64,000 bases of DNA from Rhodospirillaceae bacterium (GCA_027490975.1 JAIXXA010000145.1:5723-69722), one strand, 5' to 3'; positions 52,508-64,000 are shown, numbered from the stretch's first letter. Translations and numbers: made by a program. The notes: a model not told the origin generated them from the sequence alone.

Positions 52508-53026
52508 GTGGAGTTCGACGACGTCATCGACCATCCGGATCTGCTGGCGCTTTACCGCCATTGGCGGGCGCTTGCCCGCGGCGCCACACCGCCGCGTGCG
52601 GCCTTCGACCCCTTCGCGATGCCACGCTTGATGCCGAATCTGTTTCTGATGGATGTTCTGCCGGACGGCGGCTTCCGGTACCGGCTGGTCGGAACCGCCA
52701 TCGACGCGCATCTGGGCGTTTCGTTCACCGGGCGACGGCTCGACGAAGTGCGCGCGGGCAAAACGCGCGACGACCTTGCCCATCTCTTCGCAACCGTGGC
52801 GAACGAACGCCGCCCCGGCTACTACGCCTCGCGCCTTGCGAGCGAGACGAACGCCCATGCCAGCTACCGACGGCTCGTGCTGCCGCTTGCGGCAGCCGAC
52901 GGCTCGGTGGCCGTGCTGCTCGGCGGCTTCTGCGTCGTATGGGCGAACGAGAGTTTGGATCCGATGCGCATCACGTCGTTCGCCAACGCGCCCGAAATCG
53001 GCGGCACGCTGATGTTTCGGCGGTAG
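52508..53026 (+). CDS. PAS_5-type small protein, paralog 3
   Basis: GTG start; same family as 12341/13026/60733. Confidence 0.55.
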   Translation: MEFDDVIDHPDLLALYRHWRALARGATPPRAAFDPFAMPRLMPNLFLMDVLPDGGFRYRLVGTAIDAHLGVSFTGRRLDEVRAGKTRDDLAHLFATVANERRPGYYASRLASETNAHASYRRLVLPLAAADGSVAVLLGGFCVVWANESLDPMRITSFANAPEIGGTLMFRR

Positions 53027-54394: not shown

Positions 54395-55300
54395 TCAGGC
54401 CTCGCTGGCGGTGCGATCGAGAAGCTGGTTGAGCCGCTCATTCGCCTCGGTCGTGAGGTTGATGTGCGAGCGTCGCTTGTCGCGCGGATCCTCGTGGCGC
54501 ACGATCAGCCCTGCTTCGACCATGTCCTGCACCCGGCGCAGCGCCGTCGTCTGGCTGATGTTCGCTGACATGCACAAGCCCGACACCGACGTCGCCTTGC
54601 CGCTTCTTTCGAGAAGTGCGAGCTCCAGAAACATGAACCAAGCAGGATCCCCGAACATCTCCTGCGGCAGCAGCTCCGATCGCTGGTTGCGGAAACGGAG
54701 CAGCGATCTGAGGGTATCTATCCGACGTCGCTCGCGGCTCTCCGGCGTCTCCGCGCCGCGGCCCGACTTGGCGAGGCCCGACTTGGCGAGGTCCGACTTG
54801 GCGAGGTCCGGCGCTGCGCTGCCCGGCGTCGGGGCAAGCAGAAGCGCGCGCAGTGCCGAAACCGCCGTATCGTTGGCGTTCGACGATTCGACGGCGCGTC
54901 GGTAGTTCGAAACGGCGGCGGCGACCACGGCAAGCGCCTCGTCGGGCTCGAACGGCTTTTGCAGATACCTTGCGACGCGCAGATCGATGGCCTCGATGGC
55001 GCTCGATATCTCCGGAAACCCCGTCATCAGGATCAGCGCGCACGCAGCGCCGCGATCGCCGCACCGCCGAATCTTCTGCAGAAAACCGATGCCGTCCTGC
55101 AGCGGCATTCGGATGTCGGAAACGACGACGCCGATGCGGTCGTCCTTGAGAAAACGTTCGAGTCCCTGCGAGGCGCTGATTGCGCCGACGGCGTCGAAAC
55201 CGGCAGCGCACAGCGCAAAGACGAGTTCTTCGACGGCCGACTCCTCGTCGTCGACAACGAGGATCTTTACGGCGTCGTCGGATTGCTGGCTTTTCTGCAT
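54395..55300 (-). CDS. Response regulator: REC domain, repeat linker, MarR-like winged-helix
   Basis: REC residues (VVDDEE, VVVSDIRMP, ILMTG, LQKPF); C-terminal wHTH (…CMSANISQTTALRRVQDMVEAGLIVRH…). Confidence 0.75.
   Translation of the reverse strand: MQKSQQSDDAVKILVVDDEESAVEELVFALCAAGFDAVGAISASQGLERFLKDDRIGVVVSDIRMPLQDGIGFLQKIRRCGDRGAACALILMTGFPEISSAIEAIDLRVARYLQKPFEPDEALAVVAAAVSNYRRAVESSNANDTAVSALRALLLAPTPGSAAPDLAKSDLAKSGLAKSGRGAETPESRERRRIDTLRSLLRFRNQRSELLPQEMFGDPAWFMFLELALLERSGKATSVSGLCMSANISQTTALRRVQDMVEAGLIVRHEDPRDKRRSHINLTTEANERLNQLLDRTASEA
54762..54810. repeat. 3 x 15-nt tandem repeat (cccgacttggcgagg) inside the REC-wHTH gene, encoding LAKSD/LAKSG repeats
   Basis: Seen directly in the DNA. 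Confidence 0.7.
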
Positions 55301-55324: not shown

Positions 55325-57475
55325 CTATGAGGCAAGCGTTGCCGCACCGACGGCGGTGCGTATCGGCAGCGACACCACGAAACAGGCGCCGCGATCGCCA
55401 TTCGAAACTTCGATCGTTCCTTTCAGGCTTTCGACCGTCGCACGGCAGATGGCCAATCCAAGACCGGTGCCGCCGGTGCCGGACCGTGTGGTGAAAAACG
55501 GCTGAAAGACGTTCGCGATGATGTCGGCAGGAATGCCCCCGCCGCTGTCTTCGACGAAAATCCGCACGATCTCGGGCGCCAGCGGATCCGCTTCCATGCG
55601 GATTCCGACGATGTCCGGCGCGCGCGCGCGGGAACCGGGAATCGCCTTTCCTTCCGAGCGGCTTCTCAGAATGGCATCGTAGGCGTTTGCCAGCAGATTC
55701 ACGAAGACCTGTTCGAGTTCGATGCGGCTGCATTCCAGTTCGCACGCGACGTCCGTCTCGACGATCAGATGGATACCGTCGATCCGAAACTGCTCTTCGT
55801 ACATGCCGATGGCCGCGTGTATCGCATCCGACAGCTTGGCAAGCTCGACGACGTTTCTGTCCTGCCGAATGAGCGAACGAAAACGCGTGAGGATGCTTCC
55901 CGTGCGATGGATGTTTTCGACCGCTTTGCCGGCGCGCGCGAGGAGGTCTTCCTTGGGCGCGCCCCGCTCGATAAGCGTGGTCAGGTTCGCAAGTCCGAGC
56001 CGGACCACGTTCAGCGGCTGGACCATCTCGTGGTTCAGCGTGGCCGCCAGCCGCCCGAGCGACGCCAGCTTTGCGGACTGGATGAACATCATCTCCTTGG
56101 CGCGCAATTCGGTGTTGTCGATGCCGACCCCGATGAATCGGACCGTCGAATCCACTGCTGTCTTGCTCTGCGTCCAGCTCCACATGATGTCGCGCCGCAG
56201 GCTCGAGGAATCGTTCGGGGTGAACGAAGACTCGAAACGCACCGGATACTCTTCGGCGGATCGAATTCGGCTGAAATGCCCGACCTGGTCGGCTGCGAGG
56301 CCGCCGGCCGCGACGACCGAGTCGAAGGGCCGCCCGACCAGATCGCCGCGATCCGCGACGCCGAACATCACGGCAAACGCCGAATTGCAGGCCGCAATCT
56401 GGCCGGCGGCGTCGGTCTGCACGAGGGCCGCACCGCAGCCGTCCATGATCCCGATGAGGTCCGCCGATTGCTGTTTCTGCAAGGCGGCAAGCGCATCGCC
56501 CACCCGGGCCCTGTCCTGCGCGCGCAAGAACTTCTCGAACAGAACGGCGAGGCCGATGACGAAGGCGGCCGAAAGGAAACCGATCGTCAGATAGAGACGG
56601 CGCTGCTCGTAGAAGTCGGCAAACACGGCATCGGTGTTCTTGCCGACGAGAACCGTCAGCGAAATGTCGTCCAAGCGTCGGAAGGCGAAGATCCGTTCCA
56701 CCGTGTCCAGGCGACTGACGGCTCGAAACGTCCCTTCCGACGCAACCTTGACCAACGCCTCGACTTCGAACCCGGCGATCGAGCCGCCGATGAACTGCCG
56801 CCCAGGACCGCTCGGCGCGCGCGCGCGGATGATGCCATCCAGCCCGAAAAGATTGACGAGCGTGTTGTTCGGCTCGCCCAGAACTTCGAGGAAGTTCGAA
56901 AAAAGCTGGGGGTCGACCGAAACGACGACCACGCCCAGAAACGGGCCGCCCGCGTAGCGCACCGGTCGGCTGATATTCAGCGACAAGCGCCCGGACGCGC
57001 GCCCGACAAGCGGTTTGCTGATGAACATGCGATCGGCGTCCGTGTCGCGATGCACGCTGAAATGCTCGCGATCCGACAGGTCGACGCCAATGCTCGAGGC
57101 GTTTTCGGTGGTGGCCAGCAGCTTGCCGTCCGCGCCGATCACGGCGATCTGGAACAAGGGCTCGCGCAGCACGCCCCGCCGCGCCGACCATGTCGAGATG
57201 TCGGCCGGCGGGCCGTCGTCGAGCACTTCCTCGCGAAGGAGCAGCAGCACCTGGTCGAAGCGCTGCAGCAGATTCCGGGTGAAAACCTCGAACAGCTGCG
57301 CCTCGTATTTCGCCTGAAGAACGGCGCGGCTTTCGAATTCGCTTTCGGCGCGCTTGGTCAACCCGATCGCGCCAAGCAGGATCGCGGCAGACAGCGACAC
57401 GGCGATCGCCAGCAACGTGAGCAGACGCCCCGATCCATTGGCCAAGGGTGCGAAGGATTTGTGCATTGCGTTCAT
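55325..57475 (-). CDS. Membrane sensor histidine kinase with periplasmic Cache-like domain and PAS
   Basis: TM-periplasmic-TM topology; H-box NHEMVQPL; N, G1, G2 boxes intact. Confidence 0.8.
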   Translation of the reverse strand: MNAMHKSFAPLANGSGRLLTLLAIAVSLSAAILLGAIGLTKRAESEFESRAVLQAKYEAQLFEVFTRNLLQRFDQVLLLLREEVLDDGPPADISTWSARRGVLREPLFQIAVIGADGKLLATTENASSIGVDLSDREHFSVHRDTDADRMFISKPLVGRASGRLSLNISRPVRYAGGPFLGVVVVSVDPQLFSNFLEVLGEPNNTLVNLFGLDGIIRARAPSGPGRQFIGGSIAGFEVEALVKVASEGTFRAVSRLDTVERIFAFRRLDDISLTVLVGKNTDAVFADFYEQRRLYLTIGFLSAAFVIGLAVLFEKFLRAQDRARVGDALAALQKQQSADLIGIMDGCGAALVQTDAAGQIAACNSAFAVMFGVADRGDLVGRPFDSVVAAGGLAADQVGHFSRIRSAEEYPVRFESSFTPNDSSSLRRDIMWSWTQSKTAVDSTVRFIGVGIDNTELRAKEMMFIQSAKLASLGRLAATLNHEMVQPLNVVRLGLANLTTLIERGAPKEDLLARAGKAVENIHRTGSILTRFRSLIRQDRNVVELAKLSDAIHAAIGMYEEQFRIDGIHLIVETDVACELECSRIELEQVFVNLLANAYDAILRSRSEGKAIPGSRARAPDIVGIRMEADPLAPEIVRIFVEDSGGGIPADIIANVFQPFFTTRSGTGGTGLGLAICRATVESLKGTIEVSNGDRGACFVVSLPIRTAVGAATLAS

Positions 57476-57701
57476 GGGGCCCCGGCCATCTCGATGCTGT
57501 TGTCTCTATCCCATGACAATAAAATCAACATCTTCTACCGGGACAGAACGACCCATGTCGATCCCCGTCAAAGTTCAGATTGGAATCCAAACTGAACCAG
57601 ACTGTTCTGTCGGCCGGTTCAAAGTGCGACTAGCGTGCTTAACAAGCGATTAACGGCGTGTCGGCGCGATTTGGCGCAACAAGCGGGATGGGCGTAGTCA
57701 G

Positions 57702-58640
57702 ATGTCGAAACAGATGCTGAAACCAGACACCGACGGCGCAAGCGGCCCAGGCGCAAACGGTGAAGCGCAATTGAAGCTTCGGATGGGCATCCGGCGCCTG
57801 CGCCCTGCGCTTTCGTCGGCCCGCGCCGGCGCACAGGCCAACGCCCGGGCGGCGCCCGCCCCTGTGTCCGACGAGGCGAATGCTGCGCTGATTGCCGCCA
57901 AGAATGCGGCCGAAGCCGCCAACCGAACCAAAGCAGCCCTGCTTGCCAACATGAACCACGAGCTTCGCGCGCCGCTGAACGCGATTCTCGGCTTCTCCGA
58001 AATTCTCGCCGACAACACCGTCGTCGCGCACGGACCGCTTCAGGTCGCCCGGCAAACCGAATTCGCCGGCCATCTGAACAACGCCGGCCACCAGCTTCTC
58101 GACATCGTCGAAAGCATCCTCGACCTTGCGACCATCGAAGACGAAGCGCGCGACATTCGTCCTTCGCCGACTTGCCTGGGCGGCCTCGTCGCGGATGTGG
58201 TGGCGCGGCTGCAGCCGCTCGCGTCGCAATTCGGCGTGCAGATTCGCACCGACCTCGATGCCGATCTGCCGAACTGCGCCATCGACGCCGCCCGCATCCG
58301 CCAGGCGCTTCGCAGCGTCGTCGACAACGCAATCAAGTTCTCGAACAGAAACGGCACGGTGACTGTCGCGGTCTCGCGCTCGAACGCGGCCAATGCCGTC
58401 GTCACCGTTTCGGATACCGGCGTCGGGATCGGCCCGGCGGACATCGCCGACGTCTTCCGCGAGTTTCACCATGGCGATTCGTCGTTCACGCGACGGTACG
58501 ACGGCGCCGGGCTCGGCTTGACCTATGCGAAGAAGTTCGTCGAACAGCACAAGGGCCGCATCACGCTGGCGAGCGAACGGAACGTCGGCACCACCGTGAC
58601 GATCGAATTGCCTTTCGTCGCCGCGACGCAAGAAGGATGA
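57702..58640 (+). CDS. Soluble histidine kinase (HisKA + HATPase)
   Basis: H-box NHELRAPLNAI; N, G1, G2 boxes intact; low-complexity N-terminus. Confidence 0.8.
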   Translation: MSKQMLKPDTDGASGPGANGEAQLKLRMGIRRLRPALSSARAGAQANARAAPAPVSDEANAALIAAKNAAEAANRTKAALLANMNHELRAPLNAILGFSEILADNTVVAHGPLQVARQTEFAGHLNNAGHQLLDIVESILDLATIEDEARDIRPSPTCLGGLVADVVARLQPLASQFGVQIRTDLDADLPNCAIDAARIRQALRSVVDNAIKFSNRNGTVTVAVSRSNAANAVVTVSDTGVGIGPADIADVFREFHHGDSSFTRRYDGAGLGLTYAKKFVEQHKGRITLASERNVGTTVTIELPFVAATQEG

Positions 58641-59071
58641 GCGAAATGGCGACGCCAAGCTGCAGAGTGCTGATCATCGACGACGACGCAAGCTGCGCCG
58701 AAGAATTGTGCCTGCTGCTCTCGGCCGCGGGCTTCCCCACCGAACACGAACTCAGCGCGGCCGACGGCATACGCCATTTTCTGCGCGATCCGAGCGTGCG
58801 GGTCGTCGTTTCGGACATTCGCATGCCGGATTGCGACGGGGTGCGGCTGCTCGACCAGATCCGCAGTTCGGGCGTGCGCGGCCTGGACGCGACCGTGATA
58901 CTGGTGACCGGACAGCCGGATCTCCACACCACGATCGACGCGCTCAATCTTGGCGCGTCTGCGATGCTGATGAAGCCGCTCGATCCGGTCGAGATCGTCA
59001 GCGCGGTTTCCAAGGCCGTCGACATCCAGATGGAGCTGGTGGACTCACTTCAGCCGAAGAAGGTCTCGTGA
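58637..59071 (+). CDS. Single-domain response regulator (CheY-like)
   Basis: ATGA overlap with HK; LIIDDD, VVVSDIRMP, ILVTG, LMKPL. Confidence 0.8.
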   Translation: MSEMATPSCRVLIIDDDASCAEELCLLLSAAGFPTEHELSAADGIRHFLRDPSVRVVVSDIRMPDCDGVRLLDQIRSSGVRGLDATVILVTGQPDLHTTIDALNLGASAMLMKPLDPVEIVSAVSKAVDIQMELVDSLQPKKVS

Positions 59072-59877
59072 TCTTGTCCGCGTCCGGGCCGAGACATGCC
59101 GCGCATTGCGATGCGCCATCCCAACTCGACGGCGGCGGGGACGCGCATGCGGACGTTTCGGCTTCCAAAGCGCGGCTTCTTTCGCGCTTGATCGACGAAT
59201 CGCAGGCGCCTCTGAACGCAATCATCCGGCTCTCGGCGGTCCTTCTGGACAAGGCCGACGCGCCGTCCGCAATCGGCAGTCTTTGCCGGACGGACGATCT
59301 GATCGCGCACATAAACACCGCCGGCAACCAGCTTCTCGACCTTCTCGAGAACGCCGCCGACATTGCGCAGATCGAAGACGGTCGATTGCCGCCCGCATTC
59401 AGGTCGCTGTGCGTAAACGACCTGATCTTGGATGTCGTCGGACGACTGGCGCCGATGTCCGAGCAGTTCGGGATTCCGGTTCAGATGTCGCTCGATCCCG
59501 ATCTGCCCTGCTGCATGATCGACGCGGTGCGCATGCGATGCGCGCTGCGAAGCGTGATCCGCAATGCGATCGAATTCTCGAAGCCCAATGGCGTCGTCGA
59601 CATCTGGACAACCCGGTCTGCCGAACGCGGAATTGTAGTTACCGTCGCCGATCGAGGCATCGGCATTCCCGATAAAGATCTCGAAGAAATCTTTCTGCCG
59701 CTTCATCGCCGTGTTCCTGCCGCCGCGGAATGTCCTCTCGGGCCGGGGAACGGGCTCGTTCTGGCGAAGAGGTACATCGAATACCATCGGGGAAACATCT
59801 GGTTGACGAGCAAGCCGGGGATCGGAACGACGGTCGAAATCGATCTGCCGCATGTCGCGCCGAAGCGCTGGGAGTGA
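59068..59877 (+). CDS. Histidine-kinase-like paralog with H-box His replaced by Asp (pseudo-HK)
   Basis: LIDESQAPLNAI versus MNHELRAPLNAI in the paralog 1.4 kb upstream; ATP-lid N and G1 boxes retained; GTGA overlap. Confidence 0.7.
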   Translation: MILSASGPRHAAHCDAPSQLDGGGDAHADVSASKARLLSRLIDESQAPLNAIIRLSAVLLDKADAPSAIGSLCRTDDLIAHINTAGNQLLDLLENAADIAQIEDGRLPPAFRSLCVNDLILDVVGRLAPMSEQFGIPVQMSLDPDLPCCMIDAVRMRCALRSVIRNAIEFSKPNGVVDIWTTRSAERGIVVTVADRGIGIPDKDLEEIFLPLHRRVPAAAECPLGPGNGLVLAKRYIEYHRGNIWLTSKPGIGTTVEIDLPHVAPKRWE

Positions 59878-59883
59878 CGTGCC

Positions 59884-60414
59884 GTGACCGCCGATTCCTG
59901 CAAGGTGCTTGTCGTCGACGACGATGCGAACTGCGCGGATGAGTTATGTCTTTTGCTTGCCGCAGTCGGCATCCAGACCATGAGCGCTCATTGCGCGGCA
60001 GACGGCATCATCAAATTTCTCGACGATTCGACAATCCGCGTCGTCGTGTCCGACGTTCGGATGCCCGATTGCGACGGCCTCGAACTTCTTGAGATGGTCC
60101 GCTTGTGCCGCGAACGCGGCGGCGGTGCCAGCTTCATTCTCGTCACCGGGCATCCCGAAAAGCTCACGAGCCGCGAGGCGTTGGAGCGCGGCGTGTCGGA
60201 TGTGCTGCTGAAACCGCTCGATCCGGTCCGTGTCGTCGACGCGGTCGCGCGCGCGGTCGCGCTGCAGACGGGGGCGACGCGCCGGACCGAAGACCGGGCT
60301 CGGACTGCGGAGATGGCGCGCGAGTTCCGCAATGCAGGAGCGGTCGACGATGTTCTGCTCGACGACGTCCTGGCCGCATTGAAAAAAATTCTGCGCGACG
60401 ACAAGCGCCACTGA
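59884..60414 (+). CDS. Response regulator (REC with about 50-aa C-terminal extension)
   Basis: GTG start; VLVVDDD, VVVSDVRMP, ILVTG, LLKPL. Confidence 0.75.
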   Translation: MTADSCKVLVVDDDANCADELCLLLAAVGIQTMSAHCAADGIIKFLDDSTIRVVVSDVRMPDCDGLELLEMVRLCRERGGGASFILVTGHPEKLTSREALERGVSDVLLKPLDPVRVVDAVARAVALQTGATRRTEDRARTAEMAREFRNAGAVDDVLLDDVLAALKKILRDDKRH

Positions 60415-60450
60415 GACGGGACAGCGCGCACCGGATATCCGAGCGAAGGT

Positions 60451-60495
60451 TGGTGAGCCCGCCGGGACTCGAACCCGGAATCCCTGCATCAAAAG
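60451..60495 (-). repeat. Copy of tRNA 3'-end segment (anticodon-loop-like to CCA) without the tRNA 5' half
   Basis: Reverse complement reads …cttttgatgcagggattCCGGGTTCGAGTCCCGGCGGGCTCACCA; lies in an AT-rich spacer. Confidence 0.6.
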
Positions 60496-60732
60496 TTTTG
60501 GAATTATCTATATATTTCAATGACGTTCTCCGCCTGAAACGTCAGAATCGCGCAGATTCTGTTAAGATCGTGCCGTGCTTGACCGCTCAGGCCGCCTGTA
60601 GCTTCCGGCGAACAATGCCACGCACATTCGAGATGCAGCACAAGCCGATCTGCTCGAAGGACAGATTTGACGGTTCATCGTCAGACGGCGGTCGCGTACG
60701 TTATGTAAATGCGGAACGGCGAAAAAGCGGGC

Positions 60733-61275
60733 TCAATCGTCTATCAGCGCAATGAAGTCATTCAAGAAGGGCTTCGCCGAATTTTGTAACCCGCTCTTGG
60801 CGTCAGCCGCCGGATGGATTGATATGCGCCGCAGAAAACACAGTATCGAGGTCACCTGTTCTGCGCCAAACGGGAGCAATAGCCGCTCGAATTCGACTGG
60901 ATACCCTTGCACGGCCTCACGATGAAGCTTCGAGTAAACCGGCTTTCCCGACGAAACAACCACACTGTAGTCCCGAAGGATAGAGTCGCTCATTTCCGGC
61001 GGGAGTACGTCGTCGAGCAGACGCCCGGTAAAGTTCCCGCCGTCGGATGCTACGGCATGTTCGCCGTGGACGCGGAACCGATAGCCAATTCGGCCGTCGC
61101 TCCTTTCCACATCGTACAAGATAATGTTCGGCCACCAACGCGCGATGTCTTCGGGGTAAAAATCCGTCCGACTTGGCCACCGGCGATCTCGACGCAACGC
61201 GATCCACCATTCCACCAGGTTCTTGGCTTCTCCCGGCTGGATTGCCGCAGCAATGGTGGCAATGGGATACGGCAT
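60733..61275 (-). CDS. PAS_5-type small protein, paralog 4
   Basis: Same family architecture as 12341, 13026 and 52508. Confidence 0.55.
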   Translation of the reverse strand: MPYPIATIAAAIQPGEAKNLVEWWIALRRDRRWPSRTDFYPEDIARWWPNIILYDVERSDGRIGYRFRVHGEHAVASDGGNFTGRLLDDVLPPEMSDSILRDYSVVVSSGKPVYSKLHREAVQGYPVEFERLLLPFGAEQVTSILCFLRRISIHPAADAKSGLQNSAKPFLNDFIALIDD

Positions 61276-61426
61276 CGATCGGTCCTGCTGGGTTTGTGCC
61301 GAGGTCAGAAATCGCGCACTTCAATCGAATACGTGTTGGACGTCTTGCTTGCCATGGCGCTGCTTTCCCAAGAGTTAGAGTCTCCGGCAACGCCGTAGCA
61401 GGTTAGAAAGGCGGTTCCGGACCGCC

Positions 61427-63778
61427 TCATGCCGCTTTGCTGCGCTCCACGAAGTTGAGCCAACCCGAATCCTCGGAGATCTCTAGAAACGCGACATGCG
61501 CATAGCCGTCCGCAATCGAGCGCGCAACAAACCTAATTGGTGCAAAGTATCCGTCGATCGTCAAAGTGTCGCTTTGCCCTGGAGTCAACGCAGCAGCACC
61601 AGTCAATTTTGCACCCGCAGCCGAGAGATCCACAAGCGACACGCTCGCACCGCTGCCCAGCCGCCCACGAAGCGAGACCTCGTGCCGAGTAAACATGCGC
61701 CTGTCCGCCTCGGCAGTTGATGTACGCACCACGCGAACCAGCGCTGCCCGCAAGTCCTCGATGTTCTGAGTGACCCCCGTCACCGCCGTCCGGATATCGA
61801 CGGATTGACGGCCGACAGAATCCGCGTCGTTCGAGACCAGCGCAATCCGTTCTGCGATCTCCCGCGCCGCGTTGCTGGTTTCCCCAACATTGCGCGCGAT
61901 CTCTTGGGTCGCAGCTCCCTGCTCTTCAATCGCGGCTGCCACGGCGCCAGAAACGCCGTCGATTGAAGAAATTCGCGCCCCAATAGCGCCCACCGCTTCG
62001 ACTGCGGCGTTCGTAGCGGCGCGGATCTCCGCCACTTGCCGGTCGATGTCTTCGGTCGAGCGCGACGTCTGGTTTGCGAGATTCTTCACTTCCGACGCGA
62101 CAACCGCAAATCCCTTTCCAGCATCGCCGGCCCTCGCCGCCTCGATCGTCGCGTTCAATGCAAGAAGATTTGTCTGCCTCGCAATATCGCCGATCAACTT
62201 TGCGACTTCGGCAATCTTGCCGACGGCCAAAGACAATTCTTCGATCTTTTGCCGCGCATTTTCGCTTGTCGATACTGCAGCACGCGTTTCGCCGCTGGCA
62301 CGGCTGATCTGCGAGGATATTTCATGGATCGCACCGGACAATTGCCCTGCCGACGACGACACGCTCTGGACATTTGCCAACGCTTCTTCGGAGGCAGCGG
62401 CAACGGACTGGGAATTCTCCCCGACCGCGACAGCGCGCGACGCCATTTCCGCCACGACACGATCCACGTCGCGAGCGGACTGGGCGATTGTCTCAATCAC
62501 CGAATTCGTTTCGCGCTCGACGGTCTCAGCCATCTCACGCAGCGCCTGCCGCTTCAAGCGTTCCGCCTTTGTCGCGGCGACGGTCTGTTCTGCCTTCAGG
62601 CGCTCGTTCTCGACGGCACTGGCTTTGAAGACATTGACTGCGCCGGCCATAATGCCGATTTCATCTCGTCGATCCCCACCCGGAATGGACGCATTATGGT
62701 CGCCATCGGCGAGGTTCCGCATCGCCGCCGCCATCGCGAGGAGAGGTCGCACGATTTGCGCGCCAACCACCCAAAAAGAAAACATCGCAAGACCTAGGAC
62801 GACAGCGGCAACAGCCCCGGACTCGGCCAGTTTTGCCTGAGCAACTCCACTTTCGCGTTCAATTACGCGCCGGGCAAGCTGCGTCGCGGTCCCTTGCGCC
62901 GCAATGATCCGTTCAATTGCCGTCGTCGATTGCGCAAACCACTCCGGCGCCGTGATCGGATAAGGCTGCGAGGCGTTTGCAGCTGAAAAAACGCGTGTCC
63001 GCAACTGTCCGAATGTATCAAAATATGCGGCGCGCATATCCCCCAGTACGGACGCCAGTTCCTGGGGCACGCTGTCCCGCAGGACGTCGAGCCGGTTCCA
63101 AGCCAAGCTTATCTGGCCACGATTTTCGCCCTGCAAAAGAAACTGCAGGCCACTCAGCGGCTTGCCAGTCGCGATAACGCCAGCTACGCCGCCACGTTCA
63201 CGCCCGGCATATTCGCTCATCGAAGCAAGCAGTCCCTTGACCTCGAACAATGCGCGGATTTCGGGCGGGACTTCCGCATCGATCTGGCGCTCGAGACGCA
63301 TGCGAATGTCGCTGCTCGCAACGATGACCGAACTGATGGCTGGGAACCAATCCCGGATCAGTGCTTCATCGGCTGCGGTCGCTGCATCGACCCGTCCCCG
63401 AAGCGCGCCCAATTCTGCGATTCGCTGCGACAGGCGAACATGCTCCTGCCCCAAGGATGGGGGGAGCCCAGGCAAGGCTTTCATCATTTCGCCGGCTTGA
63501 GCGAACGCAGCATCCCCGGATGTCCGACGCTGCGCGACAGTCTGTCGCTGTGCAGATGTCGCGGCAACGGGATTGGAAATGATCGTGTTCGCCGTCCCGC
63601 GCTCGACGGCCCAATCGGCTGCGGCAGCCAGAAAACGATCCGCAATCTCGTTGATCGCCTGCGCTTGCGCGAGTGCATCGCGATATTCGACTGCACTCAT
63701 TGCACGCAGACCGACAAACATGAGGGCGACGATGCTGAGAATTGCAGTAAGGGAGAAAACCTTGATGCGGAGCGTCAT
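61427..63778 (-). CDS. Methyl-accepting chemotaxis protein with C-terminal PilZ domain (Tlp1-like)
   Basis: TM1, about 300-aa periplasmic domain, TM2, HAMP, MCP signalling domain, C-terminal RxxxR (RRMFTRHE) and DxSxxG (DLSAAGAKL) PilZ motifs. Confidence 0.8.
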
Positions 63779-63984
63779 TTCTACTCTCCGTTTGTCGGTT
63801 TAGAATACGCGACGATAGCGACAGACAATTTAAGAGAACGTTAAAGCGATACCGCCTTGTCAGCAGCTACGGCCCTCCCGATAGCTGAGACGCGCCAGTG
63901 TCCCGCGCCGGTAAATGCAACCGGGCGAGACCGGCGTCAGCGAGAAGAGGCGGGCAATGGATGTACAACAAATATACAAATCGT

Positions 63985-64000
63985 TGGTGAGCCCGCCGGG
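63985..64000 (-). tRNA. 3' end (acceptor-CCA) of a minus-strand tRNA gene truncated by the window edge
   Basis: Window ends in tggtgagcccgccggg, identical to the start of the 60451 copy; body would lie beyond 64000. Confidence 0.45.

Follow-up and report, generated by a model that had tools for sequence, protein, structure and literature searches.

Histidine pseudokinases are a recognised, still small class of proteins, to which DivL, PsmA, RocA, and RetS-like modulators belong. RetS of Pseudomonas aeruginosa and RocA of group A Streptococcus are kinase-like proteins which act by binding another histidine kinase. The kinase core of DivL has taken on a new task and senses the phosphorylated receiver DivK (PMC4211667). 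In PsmA (SCO4009) from Streptomyces the histidine of the H-box is replaced by glutamate, aspartate, glutamine, valine, or tyrosine depending on the species, and the protein has no autokinase activity (PMC12963549). In addition, the Caulobacter hybrid kinase CCNA_03265 has been reported to be without the conserved histidine (PMC10760086). Here we describe a stretch of 64,000 nucleotides from Rhodospirillaceae bacterium (GCA_027490975.1 JAIXXA010000145.1:5723-69722), called the window in the following, which contains at positions 57,702 to 60,414 two consecutive pairs of a histidine kinase and a single-domain receiver, HK1-RR1 and HK2-RR2 (modules 1 and 2). The second kinase, HK2, carries an aspartate at the position of the phospho-accepting histidine. 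It is probably a histidine pseudokinase which originated from a tandem duplication within a lineage of uncultured Rhodospirillales and which acts as a binding modulator, the phosphate for RR2 being supplied by HK1 or by a membrane histidine kinase with a dCache domain encoded next to the two pairs.

The initial annotation had described the two gene pairs as paralogs, and this holds far beyond chance. HK1 and HK2 are 42% identical over 232 residues with zero gaps (E=4e-61), and the two receivers share 56% identity (E=2e-42). In HK1 the Pfam domains HisKA (7.8e-13) and HATPase_c (3.3e-25) were found, its H-box contains the sequence NHELRAPLNAI, and all residues of its N, G1, F, and G2 boxes fit the consensus. 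HK1 orthologues with 72–83% identity occur at the same position of related loci, and HK1 is predicted to be the module's active kinase. Its H-box, MNHELRAPLNAI, and the stretch LIDESQAPLNAI of HK2 fall into the same alignment columns, where residue 43 of HK2 is the aspartate in question. Both replacements first noticed in this box, histidine to aspartate and arginine to glutamine, were confirmed by the gapless pairwise alignment and by the respective column of a 79-sequence family alignment, and an asparagine was found to be changed to isoleucine as well; the altered codon had been placed at about 59170 and is in fact the GAC at 59194-59196. The column of aspartate 43 contains histidine in 72 of the 79 relatives, the exceptions being HK2 with its orthologues and three sequences with proline. 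As the acceptor is missing and no other histidine is conserved on the first helix of the dimerization and histidine phosphotransfer (DHp) domain, HK2 should not be a canonical autokinase or phosphodonor; it is predicted to be unable to perform histidine autophosphorylation or histidine-to-aspartate transfer.

Although only HATPase_c (1.2e-17) scored above the Pfam threshold in HK2 and the HisKA match stayed at 14.6 bits versus a cut-off of 26.9 bits, this match spans the full profile when the threshold is relaxed. An AlphaFold2 model of HK2 (mean pLDDT 82, pTM 0.75) yielded two helices at residues 24–63 and 73–103, followed by an alpha/beta catalytic and ATP-binding (CA) domain, and HK2 is thus modelled as a canonical DHp+CA kinase fold. 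The homology of its hairpin to HisKA is borne out by the gapless match to HK1, the full-profile span, and the modelled helices. The best solved structures found by Foldseek with this model were HK853 and DivL, and HMMER aligns aspartate 43 with tyrosine 550 of DivL. It had been considered that residue 43 might not be the H-box position at all; pairwise alignment, profile alignment, and structure model agree in placing it there. HK2 has 30 residues ahead of the DHp domain and contains no PAS, sensor, or effector domain.

As GAC and CAC differ by one base, a sequencing or assembly error at the histidine codon had also been considered. The exact HK2 sequence is recorded in NCBI and Logan assemblies, however, and its 90% cluster consists of five distinct near-identical members from independent assemblies, all of them with aspartate 43. 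Orthologues carry glutamate or glutamine there, and several adjacent residues of the H-box are altered too. An error was rejected on these grounds, and its probability is practically nil. In the clusters of neighbouring genes, the other members carry labels of Rhodospirillales, Magnetospirillum, or Azospirillum metagenome-assembled genomes (MAGs).

The ATP site of HK2 retains the asparagine of the N-box, the DxGxG of the G1 box, and the glycines of the G2 box, and the view that N and G1 boxes are preserved is correct in this respect. It does not extend to the lysine of the N-box, which is glutamate 169 in HK2. Among the 79 sequences this column contains 67 lysines, five arginines, three alanines, and two glutamates, and the charge reversal is limited to the HK2 lineage with aspartate or glutamate at the histidine position. 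Furthermore, the second phenylalanine of the F-box is changed to leucine and the middle leucine of the G2 box to asparagine. The N-box asparagine, the G1 box, and most G2 residues are invariant across all forms of HK2.

These forms were recognised by comparing related loci, which share a conserved architecture with the dCache kinase and a receiver fused to a MarR-type winged helix (RR3, REC-MarR) on one strand and HK1-RR1-HK2-RR2 on the other. A scan of genome contigs yielded only one close locus, of the type with deleted DHp domain and from a MAG labelled Asaia bogorensis, besides generic kinases, and a metagenome scan yielded two further loci. Long two-stretch matches in the representative search (P0194-P0196), which ranked among the best of the distant matches, were discarded as unrelated membrane proteins of about 900 amino acids with two complete histidine-bearing kinase cores each. 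The position of the histidine is occupied by aspartate in the window and in locus L095, by glutamate (RLVEESRAPLNAI) in L001, L002, and L098, which are 77% identical in HK2, and by glutamine in P0191/L100, which is 50% identical, has the same HK2-RR2 layout, and shows two further changes, glutamate to glutamine at histidine+1 and proline to alanine at histidine+5. In L003, L012, L092, L094, and P0192, both DHp helices comprising about 70 residues are deleted, leaving a CA-only protein of 202 amino acids which still starts on a GTGA overlap with RR1. This coupling to RR1 is kept in those HK2 orthologues whose upstream gene is readable. A version with the histidine (NLNHEARSPLNAI) was found only in L005-L008, L011, and L099, loci with a single kinase-receiver pair beside the divergent operon. 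Wherever HK1 was seen beside HK2, the acceptor histidine of HK2 was absent, and where an HK2-type kinase stands alone at the locus the histidine is kept; the histidine is also absent in the glutamine type L100, where the contig begins 117 nucleotides upstream of HK2 and the presence of HK1 is not readable.

Neighbour-joining trees rooted with PAS-kinase outgroups placed HK1 and HK2 in two clades with 100% bootstrap each, which are sisters relative to these outgroups. The histidine-bearing kinases and the receivers of the single-pair loci nest inside the HK2 and RR2 clades, so the duplication should be old and the single-pair genomes should have lost HK1-RR1 from the locus. A single-pair kinase formed by recombination of HK1 and HK2 was unsupported, since its DHp domain matches HK2 in 36-40 of 74 positions versus 25-33 of 74 for HK1 and carries HK2-specific residues in helix 2; gene conversion over a short tract at the H-box may have occurred. 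The branching among aspartate/glutamate, glutamine, deleted, and histidine types has a bootstrap support of only 36–60%, and the number of histidine losses therefore lies between one and three. A single-step codon path from histidine via glutamine and glutamate to aspartate exists. Distant outgroups have one PAS-kinase, with threonine at histidine+4, and one receiver at this position.

The history of the locus may be pictured as follows. The ancestral locus would have contained the dCache kinase and the REC-MarR protein, divergent from a single pair of PAS-kinase and single-domain receiver. Two changes would then have taken place in a small uncultured clade of Rhodospirillales, the loss of the PAS domain from the soluble kinase and the tandem duplication of the pair of kinase and receiver. 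The first copy, HK1-RR1, appears to have remained canonical and slow-evolving. The second kinase would have lost its histidine, giving aspartate here and glutamine, glutamate, or deletion of the whole DHp domain in sister lineages, with further erosion of the H-box and, in the lineage of the window, the change of the N-box lysine to glutamate. HK1 is without the PAS domain of the outgroups and still retains their N-terminal motif GIRRLRPxLSSxR; for its leader Pfam gave only a sub-threshold chance match. In the single-pair relatives L005 (1486-1995) and L006-L008, the 716-amino acid dCache kinase has shrunk to an open reading frame of 169 amino acids with HATPase_c only, a second CA-only remnant in this family of loci. 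In L009/L010 a truncated 214-amino acid copy of the histidine-bearing HK2-type kinase adjoins a phage-type integrase, which suggests that a mobile element has relocated or interrupted part of the module.

The ratio of nonsynonymous to synonymous substitutions (dN/dS) was calculated by the method of Nei and Gojobori. Between the window and L001, where dS was about 0.3–0.6, it was 0.19 for HK1, 0.11 for RR1, 0.31 for HK2 (the 77%-identical orthologue), and 0.48 for RR2; by domain, it was 0.30 for the DHp and 0.27 for the CA domain of HK2, compared to 0.13 and 0.17 in HK1. Between L003 and L012 the ratios were 0.41 for HK1, 0.17 for RR1, 0.40 for the CA-only HK2 (dS 0.39), and 0.35 for RR2. Over all comparisons HK2 ranged from 0.26 to 0.40, and no frameshifts or stops were found in it across lineages at a dS of 0.4–1.1. 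These values indicate that HK2 is under purifying selection, which is relaxed relative to module 1, and that it is no pseudogene. One could still regard HK2 as a redundant copy which is slowly decaying and has no separate function, as evolution is faster in module 2 than in module 1, some relatives have one pair only, and HK2 and RR2 have suffered lineage-specific lesions which in L094 go so far that the receiver domain is deleted and HK2 has lost its stop. Such decay is improbable, however, in view of the uninterrupted reading frames, of dN/dS ratios well under 1 which equal that of HK1 in L003/L012, of the start-codon coupling and the spacer of 6 nucleotides between HK2 and RR2, both conserved among relatives, and of the invariant glycines and asparagine of the ATP site. 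As HK2 is in frame, translationally coupled, and under purifying selection, it should have a function which does not need a phosphorylated histidine.

The initial annotation had left two readings of the aspartate side by side, a constitutive phospho-mimic and a non-phosphorylatable pseudokinase. The absence of the acceptor and of any other conserved histidine in helix 1, the purifying selection, and the conserved operon speak for the pseudokinase. A phospho-mimic would require that a carboxylate at position 43 had been selected which imitates the phosphorylated histidine and keeps HK2 in a state like the phosphorylated one, in which it constitutively engages unphosphorylated RR2. This would fit the two closest lineages, which are both acidic (aspartate in the cluster of the window, glutamate in L001/L098) and in which the DHp domain is still constrained; it does not fit the glutamine of the more distant P0191 and the three lineages which have deleted the whole domain, nor a surrounding H-box which is eroding rather than being held. 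Aspartate and glutamate are, moreover, poor geometric mimics of phosphohistidine. As aspartate, glutamine, glutamate, and deletion are all tolerated, the side chain at position 43 does not seem to be specifically selected, and the residue would have been lost rather than swapped for a phospho-mimic; the reading as a mimic is weakly supported at best. In PsmA the same mixture of glutamate, aspartate, glutamine, valine, and tyrosine has been read as simple loss (PMC12963549). Altogether we consider a selected mimic unlikely.

The CA domain is the sole part of HK2 kept in every lineage, which raises the possibility that it acts in trans on the histidine of HK1, in a putative HK1:HK2 heterodimer or, in the lineages without the DHp domain, as a free CA domain. 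The 202-amino acid form is still coupled to RR1 and under purifying selection, and the asparagine of the N-box, the aspartate and glycine of G1, and the glycine of G2 are invariant. Precedents are EnvZ, whose DHp and CA domains restore kinase activity in vitro when supplied as separate fragments, and CheA3 and CheA4 of Rhodobacter sphaeroides, which complement each other. HK1, however, owns a complete CA domain, and in the lineage of the window the changes of lysine to glutamate in the N-box, of the second phenylalanine to leucine in the F-box, and of leucine to asparagine in G2 argue for weakened catalysis. Action in trans is therefore a minor possibility, in which case the signalling output would depend on the stoichiometry of the two paralogues, whose translation is coupled. 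Scarcely credible is another role for the ATP site, in which aspartate 43, or the glutamate of the orthologue, would be phosphorylated as an acyl-phosphate and the phosphate passed to RR2. It can only draw on the carboxylate at the acceptor position beside an ATP-binding domain, and is opposed by the existence of glutamine and DHp-deleted relatives and by the glutamate which replaces the N-box lysine precisely in the aspartate/glutamate lineage. We know of no precedent for it in class I histidine kinases.

Kinase-dead HisKA proteins can retain phosphatase activity, and HK2 might accordingly be a dedicated phosphatase for phosphorylated RR2 or RR1. In favour of this, HK2 keeps the glutamate at histidine+1 and the docking segment APLNAIIRLSA of DHp helix 1, and its gene is coupled to those of two receivers. 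PMC12963549 describes what the D/ExxT/N motif does in the phosphatase activity of HisKA proteins. HK2 is without the threonine or asparagine of this motif and has alanine at histidine+4, as has HK1; because this residue is absent in both kinases, and as the orthologues without DHp domain would be incapable of such a reaction, a role of HK2 as dedicated phosphatase is unlikely, and clearly so. The alanine at histidine+4 (HELRAP) occurs in HK1 and all its orthologues, threonine being found in 65 of the 79 relatives and in the PAS-kinase outgroups, and it predicts that HK1 has lost the HisKA phosphatase activity.

According to Pfam, RR1 and RR2 consist of a receiver domain only, and both retain in the window the acidic pocket of two aspartates, the acceptor aspartate, the threonine, and the lysine, as had been stated before. 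Within the cluster RR1 shows the strongest conservation, being nearly invariant among lineages. The alpha-1 docking helices of the two receivers are nearly identical. RR2 has a C-terminal extension of about 50 amino acids (60270-60414 in the window) without a Pfam match, which RR1 does not have. It ends in an amphipathic helix with the motif L.D[VI]LAAL[KR].[IL].R[DE], which reads DDVLAALKKILRD in the window and is conserved in all RR2 and single-pair receiver orthologues. The extension is retained even where the receiver domain is degenerate or deleted.

As RR2 keeps the acceptor aspartate and an alpha-1 helix like that of RR1, it is probably served, and phosphorylated, by HK1 or the dCache kinase. 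HK2 in turn is probably a binding partner which tunes the phosphate flow. One possibility is that RR2 or RR1 docks on the conserved DHp helix 1 of HK2 and no phosphate is transferred, as in DivL; the segment APLNAIIRLSA of this helix is identical between the aspartate and glutamate types. Alternatively, HK2 could pair with HK1 and damp or redirect the activity of HK1, as RetS does. Several points weigh against this pseudokinase reading. The loss of autophosphorylation is read from the sequence alone, and only four or five independent lineages, all of them metagenomic, are available. In L100 (118-1470) the acceptor aspartate of RR2 is changed to glutamate and HK2 has glutamine, so that this pair is without both phospho-sites; in L012 and L092 the switch threonine of RR2 is alanine; and in L094 (917-1713) a deletion has removed the receiver domain of RR2, and HK2 is without its stop. 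From this decay of module 2 in some relatives, and from its dN/dS above that of module 1, its constraint appears relaxed and its function may be marginal. Models based on binding to the DHp domain fail for the lineages which have deleted it, where either the function lies in the CA domain or it differs by lineage.

The features of the locus are summarized in Table 1. The four reading frames lie where they had been annotated, and their translational coupling was confirmed: the stop of HK1 and the start of RR1 overlap in ATGA (58637-58640), the stop of RR1 and the start of HK2 in GTGA (59068-59071), and HK2 and RR2 are separated by 6 nucleotides. A promoter and terminator scan found no internal terminators and no sigma-70-like promoters above shuffled expectation within the four genes, which is consistent with one transcript for HK1-RR1-HK2-RR2. 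An Rfam scan of 57400-60800 gave no matches.

Table 1. Positions of the genes and elements discussed, counted from the first letter of the window
Feature	Position	Strand	Description
HK1	57702-58640	+	Soluble minimal histidine kinase, 312 aa; disordered N-terminal leader, then DHp + CA
RR1	58637-59071	+	Single-domain receiver, 144 aa; acceptor Asp60 at 58814-58816; Pfam Response_reg 7.7e-19
HK2	59068-59877	+	Histidine-kinase paralogue, 269 aa, GTG start; DHp hairpin + CA, phospho-accepting His absent
HK2 Asp43 codon GAC	59194-59196	+	Position of the phospho-accepting His (alignment)
HK2 Glu169 codon GAA	59572-59574	+	Position of the N-box Lys, NAxK changed to NAIE (alignment columns, motif table)
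RR2	59884-60414	+	Single-domain receiver, 176 aa, GTG start; acceptor Asp57 at 60052-60054; Pfam Response_reg 9.3e-17
dCache kinase	55325-57475	-	dCache-PAS membrane histidine kinase, 716 aa (Pfam); transcribed divergently from the HK/RR module
RR3	54395-55300	-	REC + MarR-type winged helix, 301 aa; Pfam Response_reg 1.1e-17, MarR_2 3e-8
25-bp palindrome	57573-57597		GTTCAGATTGGAATCCAAACTGAAC; inverted repeat, candidate operator in the divergent promoter region

The linkage of the dCache kinase to the HK/RR module is constant, as seen from synteny in L001, L003, L098, and the outgroups, and throughout this clade and the outgroups RR3 lies beside the dCache kinase. The proposed third paralogous receiver fused to a winged helix was verified by its Pfam domains and by alignment to RR1, with which its receiver domain shares 40% identity; it is likewise paralogous to that of RR2. 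RR3 is the only DNA-binding output of the locus, and to our knowledge the fusion of a receiver with a MarR domain is an uncommon architecture. The palindrome between the divergent operons occurs only once in the window, the chance expectation being 0 matches, and is conserved in all six of the six four-gene loci with this intergenic region. It is a plausible candidate for the operator of the REC-MarR regulator, in which case both operons would be tied into one circuit. A second conserved block (CAAAGTGCGACTAGC...CTTAAC...GATTAAC) follows after the palindrome.

Just past RR2, a 45-nucleotide 3' fragment of a tRNA-Lys(UUU) is found on the minus strand (60451-60495), with AT-rich DNA in place of its 5' half. 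The whole tRNA-Lys occurs at the same place in L001, L003, and L094, followed by coaD-gyrA in L001 and L003. The GC content falls to 0.59 from 60 kb onward, and the fragment probably marks one border of an island which has integrated into tRNA-Lys. The putative island (60500-64000) contains genes for a PAS_5 protein (60733-61275, minus strand) and a chemoreceptor (61427-63778, minus strand). This PAS_5 (PF07310) protein and a second one at 52508-53026 (plus strand), both small and stand-alone, flank the locus, and one of them is kept in place in L001.

Among the known systems DivL of Caulobacter crescentus (PDB 4Q20) is one of the nearest in kind. It too has a HisKA-type core of DHp and CA domains without the acceptor histidine, which is tyrosine in DivL, and belongs to an alphaproteobacterial sequence neighbourhood of PleC/DivJ-like kinases. 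DivL is the best PDB sequence match of HK2 (1.4e-16), with its tyrosine over aspartate 43, as well as a top fold match. Its partner, the single-domain receiver DivK, is phosphorylated by other kinases, and the core of DivL senses it and does not phosphorylate it (PMC4211667). In contrast to HK2, which has no sensor or effector domain, DivL is a large protein with multiple PAS domains in its N-terminal region, placed in an essential cell-cycle context together with DivK and CckA; the residue is tyrosine rather than aspartate, glutamate, or glutamine, and DivL is no tandem duplicate of an active kinase. HK2 as an orthologue of DivL was rejected due to the aspartate in place of tyrosine, the absence of PAS domains, and a match which is no better than that to ordinary kinases such as HK853. 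DivL tops the PDB matches of HK2 because erosion of the H-box lowers the scores to real kinases; HK1 matches HK853 at 1e-26 and DivL at 7e-19.

PsmA resembles HK2 in that the residue at the histidine position varies among orthologues and that both are without the D/ExxT/N motif. It is, however, a large hybrid kinase with PAS and receiver domains which binds DivIVA at hyphal tips, and its lineage, context, and partners are unrelated. The kinase core of RetS is among the PDB matches of HK2, but RetS is a hybrid sensor of the membrane in which the histidine is kept, RocA is a membrane protein whose CA domain is degenerate, and neither of the two is a tandem paralogue accompanied by a receiver of its own. 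Jagadeesan et al. in 2009 are said to have described RedCDEF of Myxococcus xanthus as a 'four-component' operon, in which the second kinase-like protein, RedE, reportedly does not autophosphorylate and modulates receiver phosphorylation. As in the present locus, two kinase-like and two receiver proteins are reportedly encoded in one operon; RedE, however, is said to keep its histidine and to serve as a phosphotransfer or phosphatase intermediate, RedD to be a dual receiver, and the Red proteins not to be tandem paralogues. Spo0B and ChpT share with HK2 a histidine-kinase-like fold in which one of two catalytic halves is lost. They keep the histidine and have a degenerate CA domain which does not bind ATP, whereas in HK2 the reverse is found, the histidine being lost and most residues of the ATP site kept. 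A phosphotransferase like Spo0B or ChpT was rejected for HK2, as the histidine is absent and the CA domain retains the asparagine and the G1 and G2 residues.

HK2 therefore probably joins the already known class of histidine pseudokinases, being an orthologue of none of its members and adding no new category of mechanism. The related loci form a natural series, from a kinase with intact histidine standing alone, via aspartate, glutamate, or glutamine, to deletion of the DHp domain and a degenerate receiver, in which a duplicated two-component pair is seen losing the chemistry of phosphotransfer while under selection. The locus would be a convenient minimal system for studying the effect of a kinase-dead paralogue on its active sibling. 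Within its class HK2 is a very compact example, consisting of DHp and CA domains only, adjoining its active paralogue, and coupled to two single-domain receivers.

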